A DNA stretch of 64,000 bases, from contig CM119264.1 in NCBI GenBank assembly GCA_051294375.1, positions 7,566,151-7,630,150 of the forward strand, given 5' to 3'. Made by a program: the position numbers and the translations under genes. This stretch comes from Paraspadella gotoi (Eukaryota > Animalia > Chaetognatha). The notes below the pieces were generated by a model, which saw only the letters and a program-made list of their open reading frames with translations, had not been told where the DNA came from and searched no databases. The first letter of the stretch is position 1. The number at the start of each line of letters is the position of its first letter. Shown piece by piece: positions 16,223 to 61,921 of the stretch.

Positions 16223-18538
16223 CATCGCGCGTGGGCGCGGACTTTTTATGAAGCAAGTTAACGCACCTGTGCCTGTTAAATTATGACCGATTATGGACTT
16301 TTCATACGTTTAAGCGTTGATAAGACACGGAATGATTTTAAATGATCGCTTTTATCGGATTAAATTATTCATTGATCACTTGAGTAATTTTTGTAGTTGA
16401 TATATAAAAAAACTTTTTTTTAAAAAAACGTTACAAAAAAGAAATGATAGAGTAATATTTCTAAAAAAACCAAATAATAATGAACTACTTTTTTAGAAAG
16501 GTCTAACCTTTAGACATCAATTGGAAACGAAATAATTCATTCTTTCTCTCCTTTATTTTCCATTTTTGCTTTGCTTCCTGTTTCTTTTTTCTCCTAGTCA
16601 ATTATTCACAATGTTTTCTCTTTTTTTTTTCATTATTCTGAGGGTTTTTTTTTGTTTGACATTATTTAAGGTGGTCTATGGCGATGACCTCATTAACACC
16701 AAGCACAATTACCACCCGAAAAAGATTAATAACCATTGAATTACCAAGGCAAACAAACTTCATTTTTTTCGGTTAGTTTAAATCTTTTGGATAAAAACAT
16801 TAAATTTTTAAAATTTAAAGAAATTTACCTGAAGATTTTTTTCGCACTCAACAAACTTCAACAAATAAGATTGTTGTAACCGAATACCGTCGTTAAATAT
16901 TGAGAAAAACATAATGAGACTACTTTAATATGCAAATTGAATATTGTTGCGACGTCAAGCGAGGTCTCACCTGACTCTCTCTTTCCTCTTTTTTTTCGTT
17001 TGATCGGATGAGAAGATGAAATTTAGATTTGCTTCTGCTTTGATCCAGGATTCATTCCTTGTTTAACGTTTATGCCATTTCCAAAATCGGTCACCTTGAG
17101 TACCGTATCCGCTAGACGGTGGATAGACGCTAACAGCCCCTCTCGCGACGCGCTTGAGCGTTTCTCCGTCTCCTTTTTTTCTTCTTGCGTTTATCCGTCC
17201 GGCGTTAACCTCACACACCCCATTTGACGAAAAAGATGAGGTAGATGGCGCAAAGAGCAGGTGCGTCGGCGCACTGTAAGTCGGCAGCTGCTGCTTCGAC
17301 GGACCAGGCAGCGTTCTATTTTACATTTGATGATCCTCTCTATTATCTTACCTTTCTTAGCTTATCTCTCTATACTTACCCATTTATTGACTTGCGGGAT
17401 TGTTGACATAATAATATATATCTCACCAAGAACGAAGTAACGACATTCCATCCTGACGATGGTCGTCCTCTAAGTCGTCGTTTTCTTCCTACACTTATAC
17501 ATTAACTTTAATGGTTACCATTTATCACTATTATCCCTTTTATGACAAACTTCGCGCCGAGTAGATGGCCGGAGCTCACCTGAGTCTTGATTTTGAAATA
17601 GAGATAGAGAGGAAGGAGGTGAGATAGAGAGGGAAAGGGAGAATCCGAGAAAAGAAAGAAAGACTTCCAACGACAAAAGACATTAGTTAAAAACGACAGT
17701 GATGATATAAATAGTTTAGAGGCCTCCAATTTCCCCAAAACGACCAATGACAAATCAGCGAAAAAAAAGAATTGAATAGTCGAGTTACAAAAGGAAAAAA
17801 AAAAAGAATTAATTTAAAAAAGAAAAAGGTAGGAGGTAAAGAAAGAGAAACAACAAAGAGATCAACGCAAACGCCCAAGATTGAATTTCTAAATCGGCGC
17901 GATTAGGGCGGAGCCGAGACGAGGCAGTCTCGTAACCATGGCAACGGTAAAGATGGAGGAAGAGGGTGATGTGAATACTGAATAAGCGGTAGAGATGGTG
18001 GCAAATTAGATAAGGCCAAAAAAAATGACTGAAATGATAAAAGAGAAAGGATAGAAGCAAAAGAAGCAGTTTTAATTGAGAAAATTGACAAATGCAGAAA
18101 TCTGTGAAAGACTGCGAAACTGCATCATGCATTGGGATCAAATTGGTTTTAATTAATATATTAAGAGAGAAAATTTAAAAGAAAGAGGATTATAATTTAT
18201 ATAATTTATATAATTTATATAATTTATATGAAAAATACGAAATGAAATGTTAATATAACCAAAAAGCGTTTTTCTCTTTATTTTTATCATTAGGAAAGAA
18301 AGAAAAAGAAAAATCTGGCGGAAAAACTAAACGTAAGCGAGTGGAGTCTCTCGACACTTTTCGCGGGCTCAGCATTGTGCTCATGGTGAGTGGGTCATTC
18401 TATGGGTTAAGTGACATCTGTGTTTAGTTTTACTGTGAATGTAGGTGAAATTTTTGGATATTTTTTCTATAATCGAATAATTGGTGGTTTTAAAGTGAAA
18501 TGATACGTATTTTCAACGACGTTGAAATTATTTATTCT

Positions 18539-18622
<84 letters not shown>

Positions 18623-19881
18623 CTCTCTCTCCTTCCCTTTCCCTTCAGATCTTCGTCAACTACGGCGGCGGTGGATACGCCTTCTTCGAACACGCCCCCT
18701 GGGACGGCGTCCACCTGGCGGATTTTGTTTTTCCGTGGTTCATCTGGATCATGGGCGTTTCAATGGCGTTCGCCATCCGAGGCGCCGTCAAGAAGGGAAT
18801 ATCGAAGTAAGCGAACGAAAAAAAAATTCAAAAACTCTCGCCTGAGTTTAATACGCACTAAAATGGCGATTGTGTTGGCCTAAGATAAAAAAAAAAAACT
18901 GGATAAATTGAAGTGTGAGGTGTGAATCCTTTGGAAAGCGATTATTTTTTACGTGACGAAAAGAAGAGAAAATCGAAGGCGTCGACGGCATCCTCTATGG
19001 AATTCGACGCCAGCTTATCTTTGACGAGCGCCTGTTGCGAAGCCGGCGCCCTTTTGTTTTTTTGTTTTTTTGTTTTTTTTTTTTTAAAGAATCGATGACA
19101 GATTTTTTTAAACTCGTGATGGAAGGAGATTAGATTTTGTCACCTCTGACTATCTTGCTTTAAAATAGTTCCTTTTAATCCTTTTTACTATGACGACGTC
19201 TCAATCTTATCAAGAAGGATAAATTTTGTCAAATGAGTAAAACGCGTTGAAAAATTAAGAGCACTGCATGAACACTGTTGAACAGATCCTGAAATCAATC
19301 ACATTTACATCTTTCAAAAATGTTTCAAATCTTAATTTTGAGTTTATATCAATCAACTATAAGGTACGTAATTATCCAAAAACAAATATTGCTGAACATT
19401 GAACAAGTTGGAAGACAGGACGAGAGAGAATGATTATTAAAGAATTGACGGTGATTGTTAAGAAAAAAATCCTGATTTTCTTTCGTCTTTTATCCTTACC
19501 ATGTGTCCGCCAATTATTACGATTCTCATTACATTTTCTTTCAACCCATCCTTCCTCTCCACCTGCTCCATCCCCACGCCCACTCCTCCTTCAGGAAACG
19601 CCTGGTCAGCGTCGTCTTCGTCCGCACCCTCAAACTCTTCTTCCTCGGCATCGTCCTCAACACCGCCGGCGGGTGGGTCGAGTTGTCCGGCCTCCGCATC
19701 CCCGGGGTGCTGCAGCGGTTCGCCGCCGCGTACGGGATGCTGGCGGGACTCGAAATCATCTTCGCCGGGTGAGGTCGTCGTCGTTGTTGTTGTTGTCATC
19801 GTTTTTTTATTTCTTTACCTTTTCTCTTCCATATTTTGTTTCTTTAGTATTTTTAATTAATCTATCTGACTTTCCGTGTTT

Positions 19882-19920
<39 letters not shown>

Positions 19921-22063
19921 GAGGGTCCTATGCTTTGAGTTCTTTTAGTTTTAATCGTAAATTCTTGTCGAGAAAACAAAGAAATACGATTTGATTAATG
20001 AATGGATGTTTTTATTTTTTCAGTTCATATGTTGCCATCGTTTATTTTTAGTTTCGCCGCGAGTACTCGCGGAGCAACTCTACAAGTCACTTTTTGTCGG
20101 TCTCTCGGTCCGTCCGTCCGTCGGTATGTCTGGCCCTCGGTCTGTCCCACTTTCGTTAAAAACAATATTATTCGCATTAAATCCTTAAATCTAAGAGACT
20201 GCAAGCGCCGTCTTCAGGAATTCCTAAAACTATAAATAATAAATACACGGGCAAAGAAAATTTTTTTAGTCATGTCATGTCATGTCGGATCATCGACACG
20301 GGCTCGTTTTTCCCGATGGCATGAAGCCCCTCTTCTCATTGGTCTATTCCGACCGTAATTCATCCAATCGTCGAGTCCTTGGCGGATTCCATCCGAGTCG
20401 CGGATCCCATTCCCTTTTCGGTTCTGATTCCTTCCGCGATGTGATCGAAGGAAAATACAGGAAATAAAGTCACTGCGGCGCAACACATTGAAATTCCCGT
20501 TCTTGTTTATAGATTTTCCGAGCGATGAAAGGACCAACCCTTACCTTTATGGTTACGGCGGAGATTTGATCGATGGAATTTGAGTCCGACTTTGTTGCTG
20601 TTGTTGTTGTTGATGATTCCAGGTGGTTTTCCCTACGACGACGACGACGACGACGACGACGTCTGCGTTGATGAAGAGCGTCTCTCACTTCGTCGCCTGA
20701 TTAATCAAGTCTGCATCGTTGATGGTTGAAATAATCAGAGTAAACGGGTCCTCGCTTGTTTTGTCATTTCGAGAAGGAGGCTTCATTAATGACTGATGGG
20801 TGATGTCATGTTATATGCCACGTTATGCCAGCTATACTATGTAAAACCAAGTGATGCCATTTGATTCCTTAAGACGCCACTAGTGCTATGTAATGTCAGT
20901 AATGCCAGTGAGGAGACGTATTTCCTTTAAAACAAAATCCGTTGCAGTTTTCGCTTCCGTTGGTTTTGAAATAGAAGGGAAAAAAATGTAATCAAAATGA
21001 AGAGACAGAAAAGCGACTTAGAAGTTAGATTCGTTGAAAGAAAGAACCATACGTCACTTGCATCCGCCAGATTTCTCTTTCAAACTTTTTTTCTTTCCTC
21101 GTTTCCTCAAAAAAAAAAAAATCTGAGAATTCCGTTTCTTTTCGCCCATTTTTTTTTTCACGAAAATTTCAACTCACACTCTCTCTCTTAAGTCTCATGT
21201 TCACGGTTAAATCTTCTTCTTTTATGGCCAACGATCAACTTACGACAACTTCCAACTTAACTGTGTTCAAACGTGAATCATTAGTTAAAAAACTTCTCAA
21301 CTTTTTTTGTGAATCAATTTCAATACGTAATACGTAATTATTTTCTTGGCCTAATACGTTGAAATTGCGAAAACAATGTATTTTCTTGATGAAAAGGAAT
21401 AACAATTTTAAATTATTACTTAAAATAGCCTAAATAATCATTTGGTAGGTGCGGTTTGTGTATTCTAATTATATTACTTATTACTTATTAATTATATTAC
21501 TTTGGCTTCGACTTGGGTAAAGATAAATTGAATTTTATTATTAGCTGTCATTTGCTATTGAACACGGGGTACGAGTTGTCACTTTCCTCATTCATATAAT
21601 CTTACATTTCTTTCTTTCTCCTACTTCTCACTCTCAACACGATCTCTTTTTTCCCCACATCCCCTACTTCTTCCCTTCACCTTCTCCCCTTCTCCAGGAT
21701 GGACGACGCCCCAGTCTCTCGCGACTCCCACTTCCGGTTTTTCGTCGACATCATCGCGTCGTGGCCGATGTGGGTCGTCAACCTCGCTCTCGTCTTCCTT
21801 CATCTCGCTATTACATACGGACTTCCGGTGCCCGGATGTCCCACGGGATACGTGGGTGAGAAGATTCTCGAAGATGAAGATGGGAAATTGTGTCGAAATG
21901 TGGGGGGGGGAGAGATTGAAGAGAAAAAGAAAAAGAAAGAAGAGAAGAGAGAAAAATAGTGGAAAAGAAAATAAAAAAGAAAACAAAGCCAAAAATAAGG
22001 TAATGAGAAGAAAGAGGACGTATTATAAAAAGATAAATAAGAAACGCAAAAAAAGTACCCTGA

Positions 22064-22131
<68 letters not shown>

Positions 22132-24769
22132 AAAGTAAGAAACAAAAGACAAAATGAGAACGGAATAGAAAAGACAAAGAAAGAAAAGAAAAAAGAAGAA
22201 AGGAAAAGACAGAGGAAAAGAGTTGTCGGACGATACAGTAAAATTTCAATTCTTTGCGGCAATGAGTAGATTTGATTGCCTCTGATTGTGATTTTCTTTC
22301 CTCAGGTCCCGGCGGTCTCCACGACGGAGCGCGCCACTGGAACTGCACAGGTGGCGCTGCGGGTTACGTCGACAAACTCTTTTACGGCGTCAACCACATT
22401 TACCAAAATCCCACCGTCAAGATTCTTTACAGGACAGAAGAGCCTTTCGACCCTGAAGGACTTTTGGGTGGGTGTCTATATAGCAAGAGTTGATTGGATT
22501 TACATATTTTTAGGGATAAATAATTTGTAACTTTAATAAAAAAAAAACCCACAGAAATGCAAATCATTAATTTTCTTTCACGCAATTTTTTTTTGGTTTC
22601 CATTTTCGTCCGCCAGGGAATCTGACGTCGATTTTCCTCACTTTCCTCGGCGTCGTCGCCGGTCGCGTCATAGTTTTTTACTCGGACACGAGGGGACGCT
22701 TGACACGCTTCGCCGCTTGGGGCGTGGTCCTCTGTCTCCTCACTGTCGTTCTGTGTCAGGTGCGTAAATGAAAAGTTAGTTGAGTTGATTTTTACCACTG
22801 TAAATTATACCTAATGTATTTAATAAATGATTTGTAAATGTCGCCGAATCATTGATATTTATCCTTGCGCAAGTTTTGATAACGTTCATCATGGGCTGTA
22901 AGATGAGACTCTAAGGCATCACGAATGAATTTCGTTTTCAGTTTTATTCTGTTATCAAATATGTCGATAAAGGAAACCGCCATTTCTCCCTTAGATAGAC
23001 TTTCTTTCTCCCTCGAGGGAAGAGGAATTTCCTAAATGATCCTTCGAATAAAATTTTCAAATTCTCGCGCCACAAAGTTTCGCCAAAATTTTTTTCGTTT
23101 TCGCCCACGACAAAAATTCTTTCACTTTTCTTCTTCCCAAATTTTTTTTAAGATTCAATTTTCTTAGGTCGATCAACTTTGTAAATTCTCAATTCGATTC
23201 TGAGACGTCTTGTTCTGTGCTCGAGGCAAATATCCCCTTACATCCCCGCCTTACTCCATCTTCTCCCCCCCCACCCACCTCCATCACCTTTCTCTCTCTC
23301 AAATGCATCCCCCACTTTTCATTACCCCCTTTATCTCCAGGGCTCCATGAGCGAAGGCGCTGTCCCCATTAACAAGAACCTTTGGTCCCTGAGCTTCGTG
23401 ACGCTGACGGGGGGCGTGGCTTTCCTGCTGCTGGGGCTGCTCTACTACATCATCGACGTCCGCCGCTTCTGGAGCGGATATCCGCTGCGAGAGGCGGGGA
23501 TGAACGCCATCACGTTATATGTCGGACATCAGGTAAGGGCGAACCTTTTGGGTGAGTTCTGTCGTATTGTGGAGAGGAAAAGATATTAAATAAAGAAAAG
23601 TTAACGAATGAAAGTTACATTTTCTATATTTCCAGACGCTCGATAATATTCGTTCTGAATGTAATAACTCAGAAAATAAAATAAAAAAGATTTGTTTATG
23701 GAAATAACGGCCCGCCGATGCTACGAAAGGGACAATGATAAAAAGTTTATATTTTCTTTTATATTTTTCTCTTTTTCTATCGTTTTTATTTATTTATATT
23801 TAGAAAACTAAACGGTTTAACCTCCTTCATATCGTTTATTCGCTCAGCGTTCATAGAATCTCATAAAATTGAAGATGTTACAACCATCTTTCTTTTTTCC
23901 CTTTTCTCTTCATTTCCGTCCATCTTTTTTTTTCTTTTTCTTTCCCCGCGAAGCAAGAAATTCCATGAAACTCTCTGTTAATGGATTTGCGGCGTCATTC
24001 TCCCTAGACGCTCGTGGAATTTTCAAATGATAATTCACAGTTGCTCAGCGGTTTGAGGGAATTTTTAAATGAGGATTATAAGTATTGTACAGAGCGCGAT
24101 TGTAAAAAAAAAATATATATTGGCGGTGGTTACTTGTTCTATTTGAAGAAAGTTTTGAAAAAGTTTCATGAAAAATGTTTGATAAAGGAATTAACATTTT
24201 TGTTGTAATGAAAAATTTAAATCTTTCGTCTTTATAGAAAAAAAAAATTTTGTTGTCTAAATTTTTCGCTTCGGTTGTTCATTTTTTTTTCTTTTCGAAT
24301 TTTCGTATTTTCGAGCTCGATCTAGCGATTATTTCAACTTACTTTTATCGTAATAAGTATAAAAGTAACTGACTTACTAAATTTCGGTTCCCGCTCACTG
24401 TGCAGCGCAGAGCACCGACTTTTTACAAAGACTTTGGATAAGGTTGTAATCGAGGGCCATAAACGAATGATTAGGGACATAATTATTATATAACTCTTAA
24501 TTGACATAAAAAAGAATAACCGTCTCACATTCATAAAAAAATTGACGAATTTCAGATAAAATGGCGGGAATTGAAATTTATAGTAATTATAATAATAACA
24601 ATAATACTATTAACTATTAACTATTAAGGTTCTGGCCGGTTATTTCCCGATTCGCTGGGCGACGGAAGACACTCACCTTAATTCAATGTTCTTTTCTTGT
24701 TGGGGAACGTTCATCTGGATCTACGTGGCTGTGCTCATGCACGACGCCGGGACATTTATCACCTTGTGA
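15503..24769 (+). CDS. HGSNAT: Heparan-alpha-glucosaminide N-acetyltransferase (lysosomal transmembrane acetyltransferase), 5'-incomplete
   Basis: Ten GT-AG exons with matching phases: 15503-15672, 15764-16114, 18294-18385, 18649-18806, 19595-19768, 21698-21855, 22306-22467, 22617-22759, 23341-23532, 24629-24769(TGA); 1741 nt, about 579 aa. Motifs: FWEGGEYRL..C..PFLPILYAF (end of luminal domain plus TM1), [42 protein letters not shown] (catalytic His region), LRIPGVLQRFA, PGCPTGYVGPGG, NCTGGAAGYVD, FDPEGLLG, PINKNLWSLSF, GMNAITLYVGH. Confidence 0.95.
20045..20165 (+). mobile_element. 5' end of a DINE/HINE-like element inside an HGSNAT intron
   Basis: TTTTTAG, perfect palindrome CCGCGAGTACTCGCGG, then CTCTAC and a (GTCC)n microsatellite; same layout as the element at 1998. 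Confidence 0.35.
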
Positions 24770-25780
24770 ATCTTTTCGGTTCCATTTCGTTCATTCATTG
24801 TTCATTCATCGTTAGTTAACTTTTCGTAATTTTTTTGTTAATATTTTTTGCACAACTCCACATTAAATTCGGTGTCTTATTCGTACCCATAGTCATGTGA
24901 TTAAGTGTCATTTCTGAATAGACAACATTGTTGATGTAACGAGAATTAACAATTTTGAATTTCTTGGATGTGGCCTTAGGAGGCGAGGTAAAAAAATTGG
25001 GAAGCAAAATGAGGCTTCTTATTTTTTCGGTCTTTGATCTTTGACTTTGATCTGACTGAATGCTTTTTGACATTTCGCAGTTGTATTAAACAAACATACC
25101 GTTTTATTATTGTTAAAACATTTCTCAACTGAACTCATGCGTGACGTTGCGAGGCTCCAATTTAAAACAGGAAACAAACAAATTCTAAAATCCAATTAAA
25201 ATATAAAAAAAATAGCCTCTCATGTGGCGAACGGAAATTGTGTTTAGATTTTTTGTCCTCATGCGGTGAAACTTCGTTTGGATTTTTTCGCAGTTGGATA
25301 ATCTTAATGTTTTTTTTTGCGACTCGATTTCTCGGAAATAAAGGCAGAAAGAAAGTCTTTTACCGACTAAGCGCGAAACTAAATCCTCTCCTATTATTTC
25401 CCTTTCTTTTTATACCTTCTTTTTACTTTCTTTTTATTTTTTTTTCCTCTCATTTCCTTTTCTAGGTTTTACTTTCGGTCAGTCATTAACTTTTTATCAC
25501 AGAATTTAATTTCCGGCGTGGGCGCTAAATGGCTCGCAACGGCGCGTCGAGCTCGTTGCGGGCGTCGCCTTCGGGAATTAAGCTAACGCCGATACCGATT
25601 CCGCCTTTGATCGAGCGATAAATTTGAAAGAGGAGCTGTGCGACTTGGCTGACGCAAGGGCGCTTCATATGCTTATTAAGTTGTGGTCTAGTCAACGTCT
25701 GTCTGTCTGTCTCTTTCTTTCTTTCTTTCTTTCTTTCTTTTCCTTTCTTTTCTTTCTTTCTTTCTTTCTTTCTTCTTTCT

Positions 25781-37770: not shown

Positions 37771-38305
37771 CTCTCTCTCTCTCTCTCTCTCCCTCCCTTC
37801 CCCCTTTCTCTCTTCACCCCCGCATCTTTCCAGACTCTCCCTCTCTCTTCCCCCGTCTCCAGTTTTTTAACATTAAAAACTCCTCATATTTCCATCTCCT
37901 TTGTTCGAATTCCTCTCTTCTCGCGCCTCCACTTTTCCGTCTCGCGCCAACGCGGTTTCGACCATCGCGCGTGCATCGCGAACTCGCGCCACGTGACGAA
38001 GACGACGACGACGAGGCTCTTCCGTTGCCTGGCAACGATGACGTCACCAAAGATTGCTTCCATAAATTTTTCAGGTGATATTCTCATCTCCCGCCTCCTT
38101 TTGTTTCTTTCTTTTTTTCTTTTTTTTTTTTGGGGGGGGGGGTTCCCGCGGCGACCGGTGCCACCCGACTTGGTTTCCCCTTTCGTCGAGGGCGGAATCC
38201 CTTGAGAGACTAAACCGAAGGAGGCTCGTCTTCGAATCCTAGTACAGGGTGATACTGAACTAAACCATTTCGTAAATTATGAAAGAGAAATGTATAAAAA
38301 AAAAT

Positions 38306-38408
38306 ATATGAAATTGGTATAACCAATATAAAAATTATCCATTCATTTAATAAATAAGCTATCTTGCCCCTGACTTTGGACAGGCTTTGGTGGTTTAAGG
38401 CCTCCATC
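38306..38408 (+). mobile_element. Truncated copy of the same dispersed repeat
   Basis: Reverse complement of about 50435-50535. Confidence 0.65.
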
Positions 38409-41400
38409 TGATTCCGGATTTTATTTAATATATATTTTTAGTCGAGTTAGAATTTTATTCGAATCATACAAGCCATCTTTCTCTTCTTCCTTCCATATTT
38501 GTTTTTCGTATTTCCTCCTTTTTTCTTTTCCTCCTTTCCCGAGTTTACAAACTATGTACAAGAAGATTCAAGGGAACCGCAAAAAAGGCTCTAGCCAAAT
38601 TTCTCGGTGCAAATACTTTCTAGTTTTCCACAAATGAAAAACCTTTTGATAAAAATAGATTTATTTAAAACTGACCAACTCGCTAATCATAATTTTTTAC
38701 CTCTTATAGAATTTTTTACTCGGTAGGTTTAGCTTTTAAAAACTTACCAGTGTTTTAACAACATTACATTTAAAGTCGACAGAGTTAAATGTTGAACGGA
38801 CTACTCTTAAATCCGAGACCTTCTGGCAACCTGCAACGAAATCCTTGACGTCCCAGTGTTATCAACTCTATATCTTCGCCTTTTAATCGAGAGAAAATAT
38901 TGACGACCGAGCTAAATAATAATAATTAACTAAATTAGTAGATGTCCGCAATTCTGTATCTATAAAACAGATGCCAGAAACGTTTTCTTATCTCTGGATT
39001 TAAAAGTTCAAACTCTAGTTGCCATGACAACGATGGATTAACGCCATCCCTCTTAAAAGCGAATGGAAATGACATCGACTCAAGAGGAAAAGAGAGAGTT
39101 TGTATTCTGGGAGGAATCCCGCCAACGCCGTTTTTGAAATTGGCGAATTTAAACGACGCCGTCGGCGCCAGAAAATGAAGACAATTTTTCTGTTTTGTTT
39201 TTTATTTGTTTTTTTTTTTTTTTTTTTTGAGAAGGGCGGATATATGCAGATAGAAGCCTCGATTGTCGAATTACAAAAAATGTAAATAAGCAGACGTGTC
39301 GGTGCATTGTGGACTCGTTCGTCGAAGCACTGCTCTTGCGTTTTTCGGTGCAGCGTCGGTCCCCATTTTAACTTTTATTCGAAGGTCGGTTTAAAAAAAA
39401 GGAAAAGAGAAAAAACCAAATCTGCATAAAATCTTTATTAGGGATTAGAAGAAATTTTGATTCTGCCTTTTTTTTTTGTCTCCCGGTTTAACAGGTGTTA
39501 TAAAATACATTTACAGGGACTTCAATCTAGAGTGACAAGAAAAGGCTTTCGGTGTATATTATTTTTATAACATTTATTAGTTATTATTATTTTTATTCTG
39601 GTTCGTGATATCTCATTGATAAAAAAAATAAAGCATTAAAAAAAATGTAATCGTTTTAATAGGAATCGAAGGATCAATAGTAAAGTCATCTTTCAAAGTA
39701 AATATTCTGCTTCTTCAGATATTTACCATCACAGGAAAATCTTTATTACATAGAATGTAGAAACTATCCTAGCAAGAATGTTGCGAATTGGTATGAAAAA
39801 AGTATGAAAACATTTTGGAATCCGATTGCTCTTTCTTTTCGATTATATTACAAGTTCTTTCGTATCACTCCAGTTTGATGTCCCTGGAGCAATTCCAAAT
39901 TGTCCAAATAGGAAATGTATTTATAACTAAAGAGAGATTTTTGGTTGAGGCATCTTGGTACAAAGGGGCCATGGGGAATGAGAATAGCTAATCAATGCCT
40001 AGAGGGCTCTCGAACTTGCCAGTAGCGCTGTTTATTCAAATTTATTATTATTAATTTTTATGGATCTAGTTAACGTTATTTTTGAATATCGTTATCTTTT
40101 TGTTTGCCGACCTTGTTTAAATTGTTTAGGGCCTAAATGTTCTTATTTATCTAGAAATCTTTTGACACTAAATTTCGTTAGTTTTTTTTCGGTTTGTATT
40201 TTCCAACAGTTAATTCTGCGAGGAACGTTTATTTGTGTCGTTCATTCTCTTTTTTTTTTTCTCTCTCTCTCTCTCTCTCTCTCCCTTGCGCGCAAAAATG
40301 TTGCCCGAGAAAAAAGCGCGTGCAGACGTCGGGTTTTGTAAGAAGAGACGAGTAATGGAACCCCGGAGATTCTATCGTCAGGCAGAGAACCATAATTAGT
40401 GGGGTTGCGGGTAAAACGACGACGACGACGACGACGAAGACGACGACGACGAAAATGACGATGAGCTTCGACGCCTCAGTAGATGAAAGAAGAAATATGC
40501 GCCAAAAATTAACAAGAGAACCGACAGAACTGGAGGCCAGCAGGCGAGCCGGCGAGCAGGCGAGCAGGCGGGCCGTCGGGCTTGGGGGAAAGGCAGGCAG
40601 GCAGACGAACTGATTAGGGGAAACGTTGGGAGGAAGACGTAGATGGAACGGACGACATGAGAAGTTACGAGAAATGGAGGGAGAAAATGGAGAGCAAGAA
40701 AAAAGGAAAGGAAAGGAAAAAGGAAAGGAAAGGAAAGGAAAAGGAAAGGAAAAGGAAAGGAAAGGAAAGGAGAGGAGAAAAGAAACAGAAAAAAGGACTG
40801 AAAGATGAGATTAGGTGGATTTAAAGGTGAAATGATATGTAGTTAATGGGTAAACTAAGGGAGAAAGCGAAGAGCGAGTAGTAAAGAAAATCGGATGGAC
40901 TTAGTTGAGGAAAGGGAAGAACGACAGAATAAAAAAAAAATTGGAGGTCATTGCGAAGAGAGATGTAACGAAGAGTAAATGGAGAAACGAGAGAGAATAA
41001 GAAAGGGGTCTAACAAAACAGAGGAGACTCGCTCCACGGCCCGTAACGAGAGAAAAACAGTCGGACGTGGGTGTCTCCGAGAGTTGGGAGAAATGCTTGG
41101 TTGGAGGCGGGACGGACCAATCAAAACTGGGGCTGCCTCGGAGAGGCTCCAGCTCTTCCGATCGTTAACGAAAAAAAAAGCGGGCATGTCATTGGACGAG
41201 AGAGGGCCAATCAGAAAGGAGATACGGTCGGGAGACCCGAGTCTTCCCGCGCAAAATGGCGGAGCAACGACCGCGGATGAAAGTTTTAATGACTACGCGG
41301 GAGACTGGGTAATTTAAGGGGAGTCACGTGATTGCGAATTTCGACGATTTCAAAGATTCGGGCCGTTCAATGAAGGAAGTCAATCATGCGACAAGGTTCA

Positions 41401-44335: not shown

Positions 44336-44968
44336 TCCCTCTCACCATAACATAATAAAAGAATATACTCTAAATAAAGAATATAATTAAATATAATATA
44401 TAGTGAAATTTATTAAATTCTTATATTTATTTTAAAATTTTAATATAAAATTTATTCAGATTTATTATAATTTATTAAATTCTTACATTTATTTTAAAAT
44501 TTTAATATAAAGTTTTAAAGTCTAATTTAATATAACAAGTAGTCTTGCAATTTTTCATATAAATTTCATAAATAAGCTTAGTTTGGATAGGCATAACCAT
44601 ACAAAAAAAGAATATAACGTAATCTTGACTAAAAACATCAAAGTTAGTATTAATAAAGTATTTAACAAATTAGTACTATGAACAACGGTAAAATAACCGC
44701 AACTTGAAAAACAGCTTGCTCTACTTGTCTTTTTTTAAGCGACACGTAACTCTCGTGACTTTTCCCAAAAACTCTCTCCTTTTATGGACGCGCCCTGTCA
44801 ATCAGCTCGGGGATCAGCTTTAATTTGTTAGGTTGAATCTACATGGATTAAAATTAACATGACTAAAAAGTTTTGAATAAATTCTAATATAATAATTATA
44901 TAAGCTTGGTCCGCTTTGCAAGCATTGCCGATATTTATTCGAATCGATTTTCCCTAATTAAAAAAAAA

Positions 44969-47496
44969 ATGGAAAAATCATTGATTTTGATGTTTTTGAT
45001 TCTCGTCGCGCAAACCGGAGCCTTGCAACCAAATGAGACTATTGCGGTAGCAAAAGGACTTGGGGCGGCTGGAGGGCGTCAAGGTATTGCGATAACGTCC
45101 AATACTTACACAATGTTACACAATGTTTGTACATTCATCCGCACTTAAAACTATCAGAATCTCTATATGGCTATCGACAATACTATCTCTCCTTTGTATC
45201 TCTAATCCGAAACAGGGAAAGGAGCGAACGAGCTGGTGGAAGCCGTGAAAAGAGAGTCTGACAACGGAATGTTCGCCTTGAGAAGAGGAGAATATTGGGA
45301 AATATTTATGACTTTCAAACTGCTGGGCGTTTTGGAATTGGACGACGACGGGGTAAGGCGCTTTAAACCGTGCGACCTTGATCAATTAAAAATGTATATT
45401 ATTTTTTTTTTCAGATACTAAAAACTCAATTTCGACTCTTGGTCTCGTGGAGAGACGAACAATTAGCGTATGACCCAAAGAAATTCGATAACTACAATCG
45501 AATAGTTGTGCCTTCGCAATTCGCCAGGTGACATCCTGAGATTCGAAGACTCCTTCCAATCACAAATCGTTGCTTTCCATCACGGCCTCACATTCACTGA
45601 TTTCACGCAGATATCCACACTTGGTCCTCCTGGAAAACGCGGAGAGAGAGACGCTGCGACAGAAGATGTCGGAATACCCGATCGTGATCACCAACGACGG
45701 GACCAACTCGATCGAATCCGAGGTGACCACCTACACCTATTGCAACATGGACGTCTCTCTCTTTCCCAACGATTATCACTCGTGTCAAATTAAAATCGCT
45801 CTCGCTCCGTTGCAAGTCAAGTGAGTTAAGATACTTGCATACTTGCATACTACCTATTCAATGCATAGGTCTTATAGAACTAAGAATCATATATATGACA
45901 AAAAAATACGTACAAATTGTAATAAAAAATGTTCGCAGATTTTTTGGCAAACTTAAAGTTAAACACGAGACTTCGAATATGTTCAACGAGAATCCGGATT
46001 GGCCGTTGCAAGGGAAGGTCACCGCCGGGATTCAAAAGACTCCGGAAATGGCCGATAATAACCAAATCCAATATAATTTCGTGAGTTTAGCGAGTTGAAC
46101 GGGAATTTTAACCGTTTTCTTTAAATGTTGATTCTATTTTTTTTTTTACTCGAGATATATTTAGTTTTAAATAAAGTTTAAGTAACGTTTGCTCTTCCAT
46201 TACTTTTTCAAGTCTTTGGTGAGTCGTTATAACTGTATTTTAAAAAAATAATAGGATGAAGAAACAACCGATAATTTTATGAATAAAAATACACTGAATA
46301 GTGAATATGTTTTATTATTTTTTTAATCAGCTTCACTCACATTTCAAGTAAATAAAAGGGAATTAAATTTTCGTTGAAGCAATCACAACGGTTAATCATA
46401 ACGTCACATGTTGTTTATTAAAGCGAAAAAAAGGGTCACTTTCTTTCTCTAATCGGAATTTCTTTGTCCAACGTCCATAGGACTTCGCCTACATGAACGT
46501 GACCGTCCGCCGCAACGGAGAGTCTGTATCAACAGCACTGGTGAACCCAATGTACTGCTTTTCATTTCTTACCGCTCTTGTCTTCATACTCCCGCCCTCT
46601 AGTGGCGAAAGAGTTGGAACCGCCATCACCCTACTTCTTACTATATCGGTCACAATGATCTCTGTGAAAGTAAGTGACTGAAAATAACATCCCATCGTGT
46701 GGGCCACACCATTGTAACTTTAAAATTTATCTTTCAAGCGCGATGACAATGACTTTATTGCATCGTTATTAATCCATTAGGACCTTTTACCGACGGAGTT
46801 GCCCGAATCAGAAGGCATTTACTTCAAAACTTTCGTCAACATGACTTTTCTTCAGACCATCACCGCCTTCATCGAAACGCTAGCGGTGCTTGCCCTTTCC
46901 GACATGAATTGCAACTTCTTGAGGACGATGGGTAAACCATAATTCATCTTTGACAGTGCCAGATTATAAAATGTTTCGTTAGTCACTGCGTTAACGCGTT
47001 TGTGAGGCTCGTGATTTAAGGATTTTTTGAAGTTGTAGACATTTGCTTCCTTTTAAGGTAAAGCCAGAACATCTAGTTCATATGATCCGAAAAAGGGCGA
47101 TGAACGAGGAAGTGAAAAGGAAAAGGATTCAGAATTTTCTAAGGTAGGCCTTGCAAGTTATTCTACTTGACTAAGTAAGTTACAAATTTAAAAAAAAAAA
47201 AATATTTAACTACCTCGCTCAAAATAAAGACCTGTGACTCGGAGTTTCCGATCAAAATTTTTTTTTTTTTTTTGGTGATATCCGCGAATGATAAAGTCAC
47301 GTGATTATTTTTCAAATCCCTATTTCAGAAATTAGCGCGGGCGGTCGACTATATCTTCCTTGTCGTCAACTTGTGCGTCAGCGTTTACTACATCTCGATG
47401 ACGCACAGCAACATCCACCGTGCCATGCCGGAGGGTGAAGGCCCCGAGATTGAAGACAATCCCATGGAATTTCCTCAGGAGACGTATACCGTTTGA
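44969..47496 (+). CDS. Divergent Cys-loop (pentameric) ligand-gated ion channel subunit, nAChR/5-HT3-like cation-type pore; paralog A (436 aa)
   Basis: Nine exons: 44969-45083, 45216-45352, 45415-45527, 45611-45820, 45939-46080, 46481-46669, 46781-46931, 47058-47143, 47329-47496; 1311 nt open frame. Signal peptide MEKSLILMFLILVAQTGA, SWRD motif, Cys-loop CNMDVSLFPNDYHSC (C-x13-C), ENPDW, pre-M1 VRR, M1-M2 LPPSSGERVGTAITLLLTISV, M2-M3 LLP, M4 LARAVDYIFLVV. Confidence 0.92.
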
Positions 47497-48368
47497 AGGG
47501 GCTCGTCGGGAGAGTCAAGAGGACGTTTTAAAAGGATCTCCTTCGGTACTGTTAAGGATTTTGCCACCAAGATATAGTTTTATCTGGGGATGGACTATGA
47601 AGTTGGAAAACGGAAATTAAGTTTCAAGTCTCTTTTACGTTAAAATACAAAGCTAATAATCATGTTTGTATTAAAAATTTACTATTATCTGTCTCGCTCG
47701 CACCCACCAAGTCTTTAAAAGCATTTGAAGGTATTTGACCTGTATCGTACTTGTACAATTCATTTTTGATTGGCAAATACATTCGTGATAATCGTTTTCA
47801 AATTTATTCTTACTACGTTATCTGAAGTACATCGAAAAAATTAGCTGATGAAAAAAAGATTGTATTCGACACCGCAAACTAGGTAAACTGAAGTGAATTT
47901 GAGAACTAGGACTTGAGCTTGCAAACTATTTTTGGGGGAATTTTAAACTTTTGGCGTCTCCGGTTGTTCAAAGAAGCTTTGCATACAATATGTGATACTA
48001 GAATTTTTAGTTTGAATCGCAGGTGTGTCTCGGATTAAAACTCACACGTCACAAATCACAATCAGAAAAAAAAAAGGAGAAAATATTCGAATCGGGATTT
48101 TGAGTCAGTGACACGAAAATTTAGAGATCGAGTTTCAACGTCTCGTTTAAAAGCAAATTACGGTTGATGTTGGATGCTGGTCTTTTTCACACTCTTTTTA
48201 TCACCCTACGTTGGCAACAGTCTTAAATTGAAACCTTTCCCAATTTAAAACATTAATTCGACCTAATTGGATATGAATAACAAATTCAAATTTTTTTTAC
48301 CTCGATTTCGAAAAAAATGAATAATCGGACGATACAATTTAGTTAAAATTTACTAATAGAAAAACAAA

Positions 48369-51766
<3,398 letters not shown>

Positions 51767-52588
51767 TAGAAACTTTGCTATTGCCTCAAATTCGTTTGCT
51801 GTCTCATTATTTCTTAAATTTTTTATTACAATGTTTATATAGATTGTTTACATACTGTGCTAATATATTAAAGTTTTTCAACATTGCATAATTTTATAAA
51901 TAACAATAATGTCTGAAACAAAAAACACAAAAACTCTTTTAGATAGTTATGATAGTTTTCAGCTTTTTTTCTTTTTTTTTTCAACAATTACTGTGTCGTG
52001 TGCTCGTGTAGATCAGCAATAACCAGTTTCATGCCGAATTTAGTTCCCAAATAGAAAAGATTTTTTGACGGCCGAGGAGAAAAAAAATCGCTTAAGTCAT
52101 GTATTTAATTTCTGTATTTAATTGTAATGATTTCTCTTCTTTAAAAAGAAATTGATGCAAAAGCTTTGATATATATCATAACCAAAGTCATTATTCAAAA
52201 AATAATATTTTTCGGTACGAATTTTTATGTCAAACTTAAGTCAGATTGTTGAACTTTGTTCTTTGTTCTATTTTTTTAATAAAATTTGAAATTTGTCTCT
52301 CCCTCTCTCTCTTCTTTCTTTCCTCAAAATCGGAGAGCAAAAGTCAAAATTTCCCTTCGCGCTGAATTATCAATTTTTTTTTCGTTTACGACAGTAGGCG
52401 ACGACTCGTTTCTTCAATTTTTTTGATTTCGTAATCCATTTAAAAAAAAAAATTCGATGAAAGAGTAAAACGCGAAAAATCACAAATATAAATCGGTTTT
52501 AAAAAATCTGAAATTTGTAAAAAAATTAACAGAATGAGTGATTTAAACGAAAAGAAATTAAAACTGTTAAATATAAAACAAAAACCAC

Positions 52589-54798
52589 ATGATTAAGAAG
52601 AAGCGTCTTCTCATGACGATGCTGCTCGTCACGATAATGGCGTCAGCGGCGCTTTTCGCGGCGTCGGCGTTGTCTTCAAATGCTGTGAATCAAGAGTTCC
52701 CCAATACGTTGTCGTCGAGTACCTCATCTTCCCCATCCCCCACGTGCGAAATCGTCCTCACTGCGATGAACTACAACACGCGACAACTCCCACGCTTTCT
52801 CGGCTTCAACGACTGGGATCAGGCGGCCAGACTCCGGCGCCTGACGGAGACTCTTCGCCTGCCAATCTATCAGGCGGACGTCTTGATTCTCAACGAGCTC
52901 GTCACGGAGTGGGCGTTGCTGAAGGTGAAGGGTTTGACCGACGTTTATCCCTACATGACGTCGGTCGTCGGTAGAAACTGCTCCGGCGTCGGCCTGGACT
53001 CCCTGTCGGGCCGCTGCCACCCGCTGCTTCCCCGTTCGGGCGTCATGGCGCTCAGCAAGTTTCCCATTTTGGAGAGTCACGGGCTGATCTTCGCCAACGC
53101 CGCCGCCGGCACCTGGGACGCCAGATGCAACAAGGGAGCCCTCTACATCAAGGTGGGTTGACGGAAAAGTTGGTCGGTTTACGACGCGTTCATTGATGGC
53201 ATAAGAAATTGTTTATTACATCCAAGGAAAAAACTTTTTCGTTGATTTGGAACTTAGGAAAGACTTCGCAAGTATAGTTAGTCACTTATCACTTTTACGA
53301 CATAAGATGAACCTTATATAAACCACTTGTGGGCTAAATATTAAATAATAACAAAAACTCGTTTCGTTGAACCTTTGCAAAATAAACGTGTTAACTAAAG
53401 AAGAACATTTAACTAACTGTTAATTAACTTCACTTAAAAGTATGTACAAAGTAAAAACCAATCAAAAAACTTCAATCAAAAACAAACCGTTGAATCAGGT
53501 TAACGTGAACGGAACGTTCGTCCACGTGGTGGGCACGCACCTGCAAGCCGACGAGGGCGGCGTCGACGCCACGGGGACGAGGGTGGCGCAGGTGGCGGAG
53601 ATGCGGAGGTGGATGGAGAGATTCGAGATTCCGAAGGCGGAACCGATCCTTTTGGTGGGCGACATCAACGTTCAGTTCGGGAGTAGGGTGAGTGAGTGAG
53701 TAAATTAGCGAATCAGCGAGTGCGTAAGTATGAGTGATTGAGTGAGTATGTGAGTAAATTAGTGATTGAGTGAATAAGTGAGTGACTGAGTTAGTGAGTA
53801 AATGAGAGAGTGAGTGACTGAAAGAGTCAGTGAGTGTGTAAGTTAGAGCGGTCAGCGATATTTACGTTCAGTTTAGCACTTGTGTAAGTGAGAACAAGGT
53901 TCGATTCGCCATCAGATTGACGGAGAGTGAGTAAGGAAGTGAGTAAGGGCTACTATTTTGTGATTTCAAACCACACGATCGAAAAAATAAAAACAAACAC
54001 AATGACGTCCTTCTCCCAATCTAACCGCAACCACAACCCGCCCACTGTTTCCCCCTTTTCTTTGCCCACAACCTCAGGAGTTCCACCAGATGTTCGACGG
54101 CCGCTTCGCTCTCTCGTTCAGACCCGGACCAATCAGCTCCTATTCGCCCTCGACCAATTGGCTGGCCAGAGCTGATCGCTACTTCGCCGGCCGTTCTCTC
54201 TACGACGACAATCATCTTGACTACGTGGCCGTTTGGGCCGATCACGCCCAGCCCGTCCGGAACGCTGACATGAGGGTGGGTGAGGCGGTTGGGGATGCTA
54301 AGTTTGGGCCCAGTAGAGGACGTCTGCGTTGAAGGTTTTTTTTTTTAAATATGAATAAAAGTACAACTGATTCTAAAACTGATAATCGGAGAATACACGA
54401 ATAAATATATCGCTCTCGCACAGAGATGACAGAATGTTTACGTGTGCCATGTCTCTAGTGTCGCCCATTTTATATTTCTTACAAAAAGAGTTTTCGCGAT
54501 TAAATTAGAAATCAACATGTAAGTTAAAAATAAAACCGAGGCGGCTAAACGACATATCATTCGGTCTCTATTTACTCGGCGCTCTATTCTTCAGGTGATC
54601 AAACTGAAAGCCAAAGTGCCCTGGCACTGGAGTTACCTTCAAGGCTGGTGGCGACTTCGTCAAGGCCTCTTCCGTCACGATGGCTTCTACAGCGACGTCT
54701 CGGATCATTACCCCGTCGCCGCCACCTTTCATTTCCCGACCGCTGGAGGGTGTCGCCGCCATCCGACGCGCGGGTGGCTGAGGAAATGGTTCTTTTAA
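52589..54798 (+). CDS. Secreted sphingomyelinase C, bacterial beta-toxin/Sph type (EEP/DNase I-like fold), 384 aa
   Basis: Exons 52589-53152, 53499-53687, 54078-54275, 54595-54798 (all introns GT-AG, phase 0; 1155 nt). Signal peptide MIKKKRLLMTMLLVTIMASAALFAASA; EEP/SMase motifs MNYN, DVLILNE, YPYMTSVVGR, GVMALSKFPI, NKGALYIKV, VHVVGTHLQA, GDIN, HLDYV, SDHYPV. Confidence 0.9.
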
Positions 54799-55094
54799 AT
54801 GGGGAATGGTTACAATTTTTTAAATTTAAGGTTAATGGAGGAAATTGACTTTCCGTGAGATTAGCGTATTGATCAAAGGGCTGTATGGAGTCGGTATTCC
54901 TTAAAAAATGAAAATGGCAGAAATAGTAAAGAAAATAGAATTTTTTGAAATTTTGTTCTTCCAATTTTTTTTTTTTATTTTACTGTCTTTTTCTCTCATT
55001 ATTTATCGTCTTTTTCTATCTTTTTTTTCATTCTTTCCCTTTTTTTTCTTTTTTTCTTTTTGCATTTTTTGTTTCTTTATTTTTTTGTTAATTT

Positions 55095-61065: not shown

Positions 61066-61896
61066 TCATTTCTTCATAACGTTCGCGACGAATCCGATTC
61101 CTATCAACAAAATGGCGGCGCCCACAAAAAACGTGATTCCGGCACAAAGTTTGGCTCGCTCTCCGTGATGCCGCGCGTCCTTCAAGTTTCCCTCGGCCGT
61201 TTGACGCCGACACTCCCGCGCCGCTTTGATCGCCGACACCCCGCAACAGGCCATCCACGGGCAGAGCAGAAAGGCCAGGGCAGCCCATATAAGGTTGGAG
61301 GCGGGCGGAGTCGGGTCCTCCGGCGGGCAGAGCACCTCGCGCGGCAAGGAGTTGAGGATCTCGTAGCTGCCGTATCCCTTTCGCGAGGTCTCCGGCGTGC
61401 CGGACATGGTGGTGTTCAAACTCGTGGTGATGTTGAGGGTGGCGTTGCTCTTCCGCCGCGTCTCGGGCGTCTCTGAGAAGGAGAGCTGGGCGGAGCACTG
61501 GTGTTCCGAGAGTTCGTCTTCGGGGACTAAGGACACTTTGACGGAGGACGAGATCTGCCGCTTGGTGCGCGGCGGTGTGAGGGCCGCGATCATGACGGCC
61601 ATCGCGATGTCACGGTTCATCTCCTTCCGAATCTCGATCTGGCGCAGGGCTTCCCTCTCCTCCTTGTCCTTGATCTTCTTCCCCACCAGAGGGGACTTGA
61701 GCTTGTCCGGCGTCAACATTCCGATCCGCTCCTTCGACTTGGACTTTTCCCGGCCGACCGAGAGGCCGCCGAGACCCCCGGCGGCGCCGTTCGCGTTCGC
61801 CGTCGACGTCGTTGCCTTCGACGCCGAGGATTTGATCGATTCCGTTGTGGAGCCCTCCATGCGGTTCATGGACGCCATCTCCACCGAGGCGTCCAT
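61066..61896 (-). CDS. CD225/dispanin-family membrane protein (PRRT/SynDIG/IFITM-like), intronless, 276 aa
   Basis: GC-rich single ORF. Long low-complexity N-terminus, then PPASNLIWAALAFLLCPWMACCGVSAIKAA (first hydrophobic segment with Cys), G-x3-A-x5-A-K loop (GNLKDARHHGERAK) and a C-terminal TM helix AGITFFVGAAILLIGIGFV. Confidence 0.8.
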   Translation of the reverse strand: MDASVEMASMNRMEGSTTESIKSSASKATTSTANANGAAGGLGGLSVGREKSKSKERIGMLTPDKLKSPLVGKKIKDKEEREALRQIEIRKEMNRDIAMAVMIAALTPPRTKRQISSSVKVSLVPEDELSEHQCSAQLSFSETPETRRKSNATLNITTSLNTTMSGTPETSRKGYGSYEILNSLPREVLCPPEDPTPPASNLIWAALAFLLCPWMACCGVSAIKAARECRRQTAEGNLKDARHHGERAKLCAGITFFVGAAILLIGIGFVANVMKK

Positions 61897-61921
61897 GGTG
61901 GGGAGAGAAGAGAGAGGGAGA

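Follow-up and report, generated by a model that had tools for sequence, protein, structure and literature searches.

The window, by which we mean the whole 64-kb stretch of DNA that was analysed, holds a single copy of a sphingomyelinase C gene, which the sequence and one assembled contig of a public sequencing run (X1) divide into four exons with 384 codons plus a stop. Its parts are the following.

52423..52588 (+): 5' UTR, at least from 52423, where the X1 contig starts; 22% GC
52589..53152 (+): coding part of exon 1, aa 1-188, with predicted signal peptide, Ser/Thr-rich linker and first EEP half; key residues N63, E103, C131/C143 and R149
52589..52669 (+): predicted signal peptide, aa 1 to about 27, from sequence and hydropathy
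53153..53498 (+): intron 1, 346 nt, GT..AG, phase 0, 9 in-frame stops
53499..53687 (+): exon 2, aa 189-251, with H202 (53538), D243 (53661) and N245 (53667)
53688..54077 (+): intron 2, 390 nt, GT..AG, phase 0, 18 in-frame stops
54078..54275 (+): exon 3, aa 252-317, with D299 (54219)
54276..54594 (+): intron 3, 319 nt, GT..AG, phase 0, 7 in-frame stops
54595..54798 (+): coding part of exon 4, aa 318-384 and stop, with D354/H355 (54703-54708) and a basic-aromatic tail
54616..54696 (+): long aromatic beta-hairpin segment, aa 325-351, from the alignment and the strands of the P0011 model; predicted to dock on membranes
54799..54994 (+): 3' UTR, at least to 54994, where the X1 contig ends; 28% GC

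Three public runs were examined; the stretch was present in X1, and X2 and X3 yielded nothing on the gene and were uninformative. In X1, a single 1517-nt contig covered positions 52423-54994 and skipped three of three introns at the predicted sites, reproducing exactly the model of four exons and three phase-0 introns that the preliminary description had proposed. The contig differed from the window by one letter, synonymous and in a Gly codon, and depth was zero in the bins lying wholly within the three introns, which indicates that X1 carries the joined form and not the genomic one. As X1 is one run of one study, is RNA by guess only and could have the same origin as the assembly, we count it, junctions included, as one line of evidence. 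A pseudogene was rejected, the frames being open and the sole difference synonymous. The four-exon sphingomyelinase C gene is real, intact and spliced. Contig depths in X1 were 146 for this gene and 12.6 for a neighbour, values that do not rank expression. GC3 of the coding part is 0.77, which lies within the 0.63-0.93 measured in frame for 10 exon stretches nearby, and both the UTRs (22-28% GC) and the flanks are AT-rich.

The gene starts 822 bp behind a spliced Cys-loop gene. No N occurs from 9285 to 55883, a gap-free stretch of 46.6 kb in the one assembly, which also contains HGSNAT and two Cys-loop subunit genes; a CD225 gene comes after, past the assembly gaps. The Cys-loop subunit genes, for which LBD and TM exons were detected, stand in tandem at 44900-47500 and 48800-51850 (+) and are highly divergent, with matching exons 43-82% identical and Pfam LBD matches at E of about 1e-6 to 1e-8; one LBD exon searched against the PDB gave no match. 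These receptor genes carry the C-x13-C loop typical of animal Cys-loop receptors, from which the host is taken to be an animal, and the second of them is spliced in X1, with zero other letters in its four listed pieces. A high-copy repeat lies in a Cys-loop intron at about 50280-50540, with a summed X1 depth of 46,000-84,000 and many loose ends, and a stretch near 38213-38437 (-) resembles it. The HGSNAT gene (about 18500-24800, +) has several exons, one of which matched human HGSNAT at E 4.5e-17, and its expression was not seen; the CD225/dispanin gene (61069-61900, -) consists of a single long open frame whose extended N-terminal region is rich in Ser, Thr and Lys.

When the exons were scanned singly, exon 1 matched the TIGR03395 sphingomyelin phosphodiesterase model over model positions 5-130 (E 3.1e-11, 43.3 bits) and exon 2 followed colinearly over positions 132-194 (E 1e-11, 44.9 bits), with no family match for exons 3 and 4; exon 1 also gave a weak match to Pfam PF03372 (E 0.0024). 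The PDB sequence matches of exon 1 and those of exon 2 were bacterial sphingomyelinases C in seven of seven cases each, and both atlas searches returned bacterial clusters (at least 50 members) only. A profile of the relatives matched bacterial SMases C at E 1e-57 to 1e-66, human SMPD3 at 1.7e-15 and human SMPD2 at 4.2e-11. For the structure we used the AlphaFold model of P0011, which is a 58% identical relative and not the window protein itself (pLDDT 92, 59 sequences). This model gave Z 36.7-38.1 with rmsd 2.0-2.5 against bacterial SMases C, and Z 27.6 and 23.7 against human nSMases; its Foldseek E values were 1e-22 to 1e-28, and all SMase C entries had VIA Z values of 33-38, the next family standing at 27.6. 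As judged from sequence and from the relative's model, the broad class of the window protein is that of the sphingomyelinase C-like EEP enzymes. Assignment to the animal nSMases SMPD2/SMPD3 was rejected on their much lower scores and on a hydrophobic segment found only at the N-terminus.

A search with exon 1 found nine proteins at 53-69% identity among 4520 candidates, profile searches with the relatives matched 17 of 7996 and 31 of 3003, and a further profile search gave 1877 representatives at E <=0.001, 150 of which are among the matches listed. At least 21 eukaryote-like relatives group with the window protein, in three clades named E1-E3, and identity to the window protein is 55-62% in E1, its own clade, 41-45% in E2 and 34-40% in E3, as compared with 37-44% for marine bacteria, 27-34% for classical rows and 25-29% for hemichordate-type rows. 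Full-length members of E1-E3 sit on contigs of 1-2.5 kb, two loci of this type resemble single-gene transcripts with AT-rich 3' ends, and one E2 protein bears the source label 'merc', which we take to be a marine eukaryote catalogue. Among 27 fragments whose ends were compared, several stop at fixed places, some then with a Val, as expected of exon ends read into GT. Two E1 fragments (P0145 and P0020) break exactly at intron 2 of the window gene, five E1 fragments (P0019, P0024, P0070, P0073 and P0159) start or stop at two sites absent in the window, and four E2 fragments and one E3 fragment have exon-like breaks at sites of their own. Read from protein ends and not from DNA, the position of intron 2 is apparently common to the window gene and two E1 relatives.

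The nearest named organism among the matches listed was Zooshikella (WP_212718592.1). Named genome loci, within the best 80 of 109, were from Hahella, Photobacterium, Oleiphilaceae, Algicola, Kangiella, Reinekea, Saccharospirillum and one Desulfobacteraceae MAG, and most other loci among these 80 were from Actinomycetota, at lower scores. One bacterial relative (locus L002) lies in a plainly bacterial neighbourhood. Presence in bacteria is patchy: in the family to which the Hahella genome belongs, 4 of 61 genomes have the gene. At the DNA level the gene gave no match in three of three related bacterial genomes. Marine bacterial members at L005:3705-7325 and in P0055, P0056 and P0054 are fused to repeat domains in secreted proteins of 600-1200 aa, and by our own reading these fusions appear to include a lipase-like domain. 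A distant EEP relative (L103:3001-3573; 31%, partial) sits on a 97-kb IMG/VR contig labelled GVMAG; it was the one weak locus among 13 candidate stretches, and a viral vector was unsupported.

No named eukaryote protein of the marine-type subfamily was among the matches listed, where the only named animal relatives were Ptychodera proteins at 25-28% identity. Another set of animal SMase C-like proteins, which forms a clade of its own, has Cys-rich extensions and comprises P0228, P0230, P0077, P0104, P0150 and P0175, of which the first two are from Ptychodera flava and P0077 has tandem domains; this clade is possibly an independent acquisition. P0045, P0060, P0061, P0063, P0064 and P0066 stand as singles inside the marine clade and outside E1-E3, on contigs of 1.6-4.6 kb (P0066 excepted), and may be further eukaryote acquisitions.

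Trees were built with FastTree from 267 rows of 331 profile matches, rows of <60% cover and hand-picked near-duplicates being dropped, with a quick IQ-TREE run on 80 rows and with a careful IQ-TREE run on 45 rows (LG+C20) hand-picked from the first tree. The family search and maximum-likelihood tree foreseen in the preliminary description were carried out with bacterial and Ptychodera rows, and without rows of B. cereus, S. aureus or SMPD2/3; Carnobacterium-cluster P0101 and Streptomyces served as classical rows. In the 45-row tree the window protein fell within E1 (support 100/99), and E1 was joined to E2 at 91/81 (SH 95 in the 80-row tree). Monophyly of E1, E2 and E3 together was weak (89/57), with Zooshikella as sister at 96/83, and the 80-row tree placed E3 and Zooshikella without resolution. 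All three trees agree in grouping E1 and E2 with marine bacteria and in keeping them away from the classical and hemichordate-type rows, and several bacterial lineages fall, one after another, outside the eukaryote-like rows, on a backbone of moderate support (82/76, 86/78). AU tests were run on the 45 rows, for groups that had been picked once the trees were known; they rejected a union of E1-E3 with the classical rows (n=5, p=0.0014) and with the hemichordate-type rows (p=0.026), and also rejected the bacteria-like rows as one clade (p=0.0006), some rows having been assigned by our own reading. The root was not inferred by the trees; taking the classical enzymes as outgroup gives the direction from bacterium to eukaryote and, as the bacterial side is patchy too, the direction of transfer rests on this rooting.

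Marks in the protein itself were compared across the same alignment. The N-terminus has a basic n-region, a hydrophobic stretch at 7-25 and an A-S-A end; the 19-residue KD maximum is 2.26, at residue 7, with values of <=1.13 beyond residue 35 of exon 1 and <=0.63 in exons 2-4, so that the sole hydrophobic segment is the N-terminal one. This suggests a signal peptide, as had been described, by hydropathy and as a prediction; it would be followed by a Ser/Thr linker, and the protein has two N-glycosylation sequons. All motifs named at the outset are present in the sequence, and the central catalytic and metal set is kept in eight of eight positions (N63, E103, H202, D243, N245, D299, D354 and H355), as it is in 22/22 eukaryote-like and 17/17 marine-clade rows, the organism being named for 12 of the latter. 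Part of this set presumably bears the numbers H151, D195, D253 and D295 in the B. cereus SMase. The other positions are given as E53, H296, N16 and N197 in PMC9710629, which also places the edge metal site of that enzyme at F55/N57/E99/D100 and its membrane-binding part in an aromatic hairpin.

None of the four edge metal residues is kept in the window protein, which has V105, E107 and P-R-S at 148-150, in either alignment register. An Arg stands at the edge position in 18/22 eukaryote-like and 17/17 marine rows and in 0/10 classical rows, and the loop Cys pair C131/C143 is found in 22/22 eukaryote-like, 17/17 marine, 0/10 classical and 0/3 hemichordate-type rows. The hairpin measures 27 aa in the window protein and 24-28 aa in marine rows, as against 12-18 in classical rows; that of the window (aa 325-351) has 8 aromatic residues and 4 Trp, and the P0011 model has beta strands at 301-330 with pLDDT 96-98. 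The Cys pair, the edge Arg and the hairpin back the tree in a way that does not depend on its branch supports, although they come from the same alignment. The Cys pair and the long Trp-rich hairpin, along with the lost edge metal site, are the marks of the subfamily to which the window protein and the marine enzymes belong. Membership in the classical beta-toxin/Sph branch (the TIGR03395 equivalog) was rejected on the edge site, the clade and the cut-off score, the relative P0011 reaching 123.9 of the 248 bits and the window exons having been scored singly. Cys residues just before and just after the domain are both present in 9/12 E1 rows, the window included, and probably form a further disulfide. 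The basic-aromatic C-terminal tail (54751-54798, +) is absent from the aligned relatives and could be an extra membrane-binding patch.

We regard it as highly probable that the gene arrived by bacterium-to-animal transfer, long ago and from a marine-bacterial source. As the preliminary description had argued, the introns speak for a bacterium-derived gene that gained them and against a contaminant. None of the outcomes that it named as refuting was observed: the gene is spliced in X1 and contiguous with host genes in the assembly, and the protein is nested among bacterial rows and stands apart from the SMase C-like proteins of named animals. Several points of that description needed revision. 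The Bacillus/Staphylococcus beta-toxin type did not hold, since identity to it is 27-34% as compared with 37-44% for the marine enzymes, the edge metal site is kept in 0/4 positions and descent from the classical branch was rejected (AU p=0.0014); and the transfer, which stands, is not peculiar to this genome, as the gene belongs to an old eukaryote-like family with 55-62% identity. Similarly, SMPD2 and SMPD3 are not the only animal SMases to be considered, given the Ptychodera SMase C-like proteins, though these do form a separate clade and orthology to them was rejected (AU p=0.026). A recent transfer was ruled out by the 37-44% identity to bacteria and the host-like GC3.

That contamination or mis-assembly joined a gene of a bacterium or of another eukaryote into the contig is extremely improbable; the linkage comes from one assembly, whose source X1 may share, but the spliceosomal introns are removed in X1, no N lies between 9285 and 55883, the UTRs and flanks are AT-rich and GC3 is host-like, and X1 also holds the upstream Cys-loop transcript with zero other letters. 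A family old in eukaryotes, maintained by vertical descent with many losses or spread from eukaryote to eukaryote, with the bacteria as recipients or an ancient reverse transfer, would account for three deep eukaryote-like clades and for unplaced singles on short contigs, and the patchiness in bacteria, the second animal clade and the moderate backbone all speak for it. We nevertheless consider it quite improbable, as a bacteria-only clade (p-AU 0.0006) and a union with the hemichordate-type rows (p-AU 0.026) were both rejected, successive bacterial lineages lie outside the eukaryote-like rows, and named eukaryote proteins of the subfamily were absent from the matches listed.

The protein is probably a phosphosphingolipid hydrolase, going by its sequence, and a digestive role on food membranes seems somewhat favoured. 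The explanation as a whole, in which an old marine-bacterial transfer would now provide a secreted, Mg2+-dependent sphingomyelinase C that digests sphingolipids outside the cell, is on balance the likely one. The signal peptide would lead the protein into the secretory route, and the Trp-rich hairpin, together with the disulfide-tied loop bearing Arg149, would dock on a lipid surface, replacing the classical edge metal site. A metal at Glu103/His355, with His202, Asp243, Asn245, Asp299 and Asp354, would then cut the phosphodiester, giving ceramide and a phospho-headgroup, either phosphocholine from sphingomyelin or a related headgroup of invertebrate sphingolipids. The enzyme would most likely serve to digest the membranes of food, in the gut or at a feeding surface, with a cytolysin role second.

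Such a cytolysin, of the same bacterial origin and disrupting cell membranes as a venom for catching prey or as a secretion for defence, is in our estimation rather unlikely. It would agree with the secreted-type build, with a hairpin that exceeds those of classical enzymes in length and in Trp content and with the several divergent copies among relatives, and there is a precedent in centipede venoms, which are reportedly stocked by horizontal transfer. The findings of PMC9710629 point both ways: in the B. cereus SMase the aromatic apex of the hairpin is needed for liposome binding and haemolysis, which we count for a cytolysin, and erythrocyte binding falls when N57, E99 or D100 is lost, which we count against it, the edge-metal residues being kept in 0/4 positions here. 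In addition, we infer that the steady 55-62% conservation of the catalytic domain in E1 fits a metabolic enzyme at least equally, and venom context is absent from the window. A bacterially derived enzyme whose main substrate is not sphingomyelin, such as a phosphate- or choline-scavenging phospholipase C acting on glycerophospholipids or phosphonosphingolipids, appears improbable; scores below the equivalog cut-off, the remodelled edge site and hairpin, and bacterial members labelled just 'phospholipase C' or, by our reading, fused to a lipase-like domain would be consistent with it, but the best matches by sequence, by profile, in the atlas and by fold are all sphingomyelinases C, and the NCBI name of the Zooshikella relatives, an annotation, is sphingomyelin phosphodiesterase. 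Full-text literature searches brought up no publication on what substrate the marine subfamily uses. Beyond the digestive sphingomyelinase that we prefer, one may also picture a single ancient transfer from a Zooshikella-like gammaproteobacterium that founded the E1-E3 family in a common marine invertebrate group, as an undescribed subfamily with edge-metal-free membrane binding through the Trp hairpin and the disulfide-tied Arg loop, serving as a secreted enzyme for lysing prey or for defence, adapted to invertebrate sphingolipids; taken whole, this scenario is speculative and unlikely.

Full-text searches found no report of the marine SMase C subfamily or of its transfer (in PMC12465592 the term occurs in the reference list only); the gene may still stand, without a name, in a table of transfer candidates that supplements a genome paper. 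The case is a well-supported and apparently unreported one, in which a lipid-cleaving enzyme of a bacterial virulence family has turned into an ordinary family of animal genes with introns. Marine bacteria and eukaryotes have in common an SMase C subfamily with a remodelled membrane-binding surface. As there is ample precedent for animals acquiring secreted hydrolases from bacteria, the surprise is moderate.

Among known systems, the classical SMases C (B. cereus 2DDR, S. aureus beta-toxin 3I5V, L. ivanovii SmcL 1ZWX and S. griseocarneus 7CNE) have the same EEP/DNase I fold, as judged from the P0011 model, and have in common with the window protein the central positions, the secreted build and an aromatic beta-hairpin near the C-terminus. 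In contrast to them, the window protein, at 27-34% identity and in a separate clade, has lost the edge metal site, has a hairpin about 10 aa longer and an extra Cys pair in an exposed loop, and comes from a gene with three spliceosomal introns, its relative P0011 scoring below the TIGR03395 cut-off. The SMase C-like enzymes of marine gammaproteobacteria (Zooshikella, Hahella, Photobacterium, Algicola, Kangiella, Reinekea and Oleiphilaceae; loci L023-L037) fall in the same clade in three trees and have the Cys pair, the edge-site Arg and the long Trp-rich hairpin in common with it; they are intron-free, annotated by similarity and without the Cys before the first strand that 9/12 E1 rows have.

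Among animal proteins, SMPD2 and SMPD3 (8J2F, 5UVG) have the fold and chemistry class of the window protein, but both are membrane-anchored, whereas the window protein has a single, N-terminal hydrophobic segment. The Ptychodera flava 'sphingomyelinase C-like' proteins (P0228, P0230) belong to the same superfamily branch and keep the central residues, but have a Cys-rich N-terminal extension and lack the Trp hairpin and the loop Cys pair; their separate clade (p-AU 0.026) probably reflects an independent history. A parallel in evolutionary pattern is the aquatic SMase D/PLD clade (GDPD-like), for which PMC6299612 describes a proteobacterial origin, a patchy distribution in aquatic animals and roles that are not necessarily toxic, one member being specific to the feeding polyp. 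Its fold and its reaction, of phospholipase D type, are unrelated to those of the window protein, and that clade is an analogy and not a relative.
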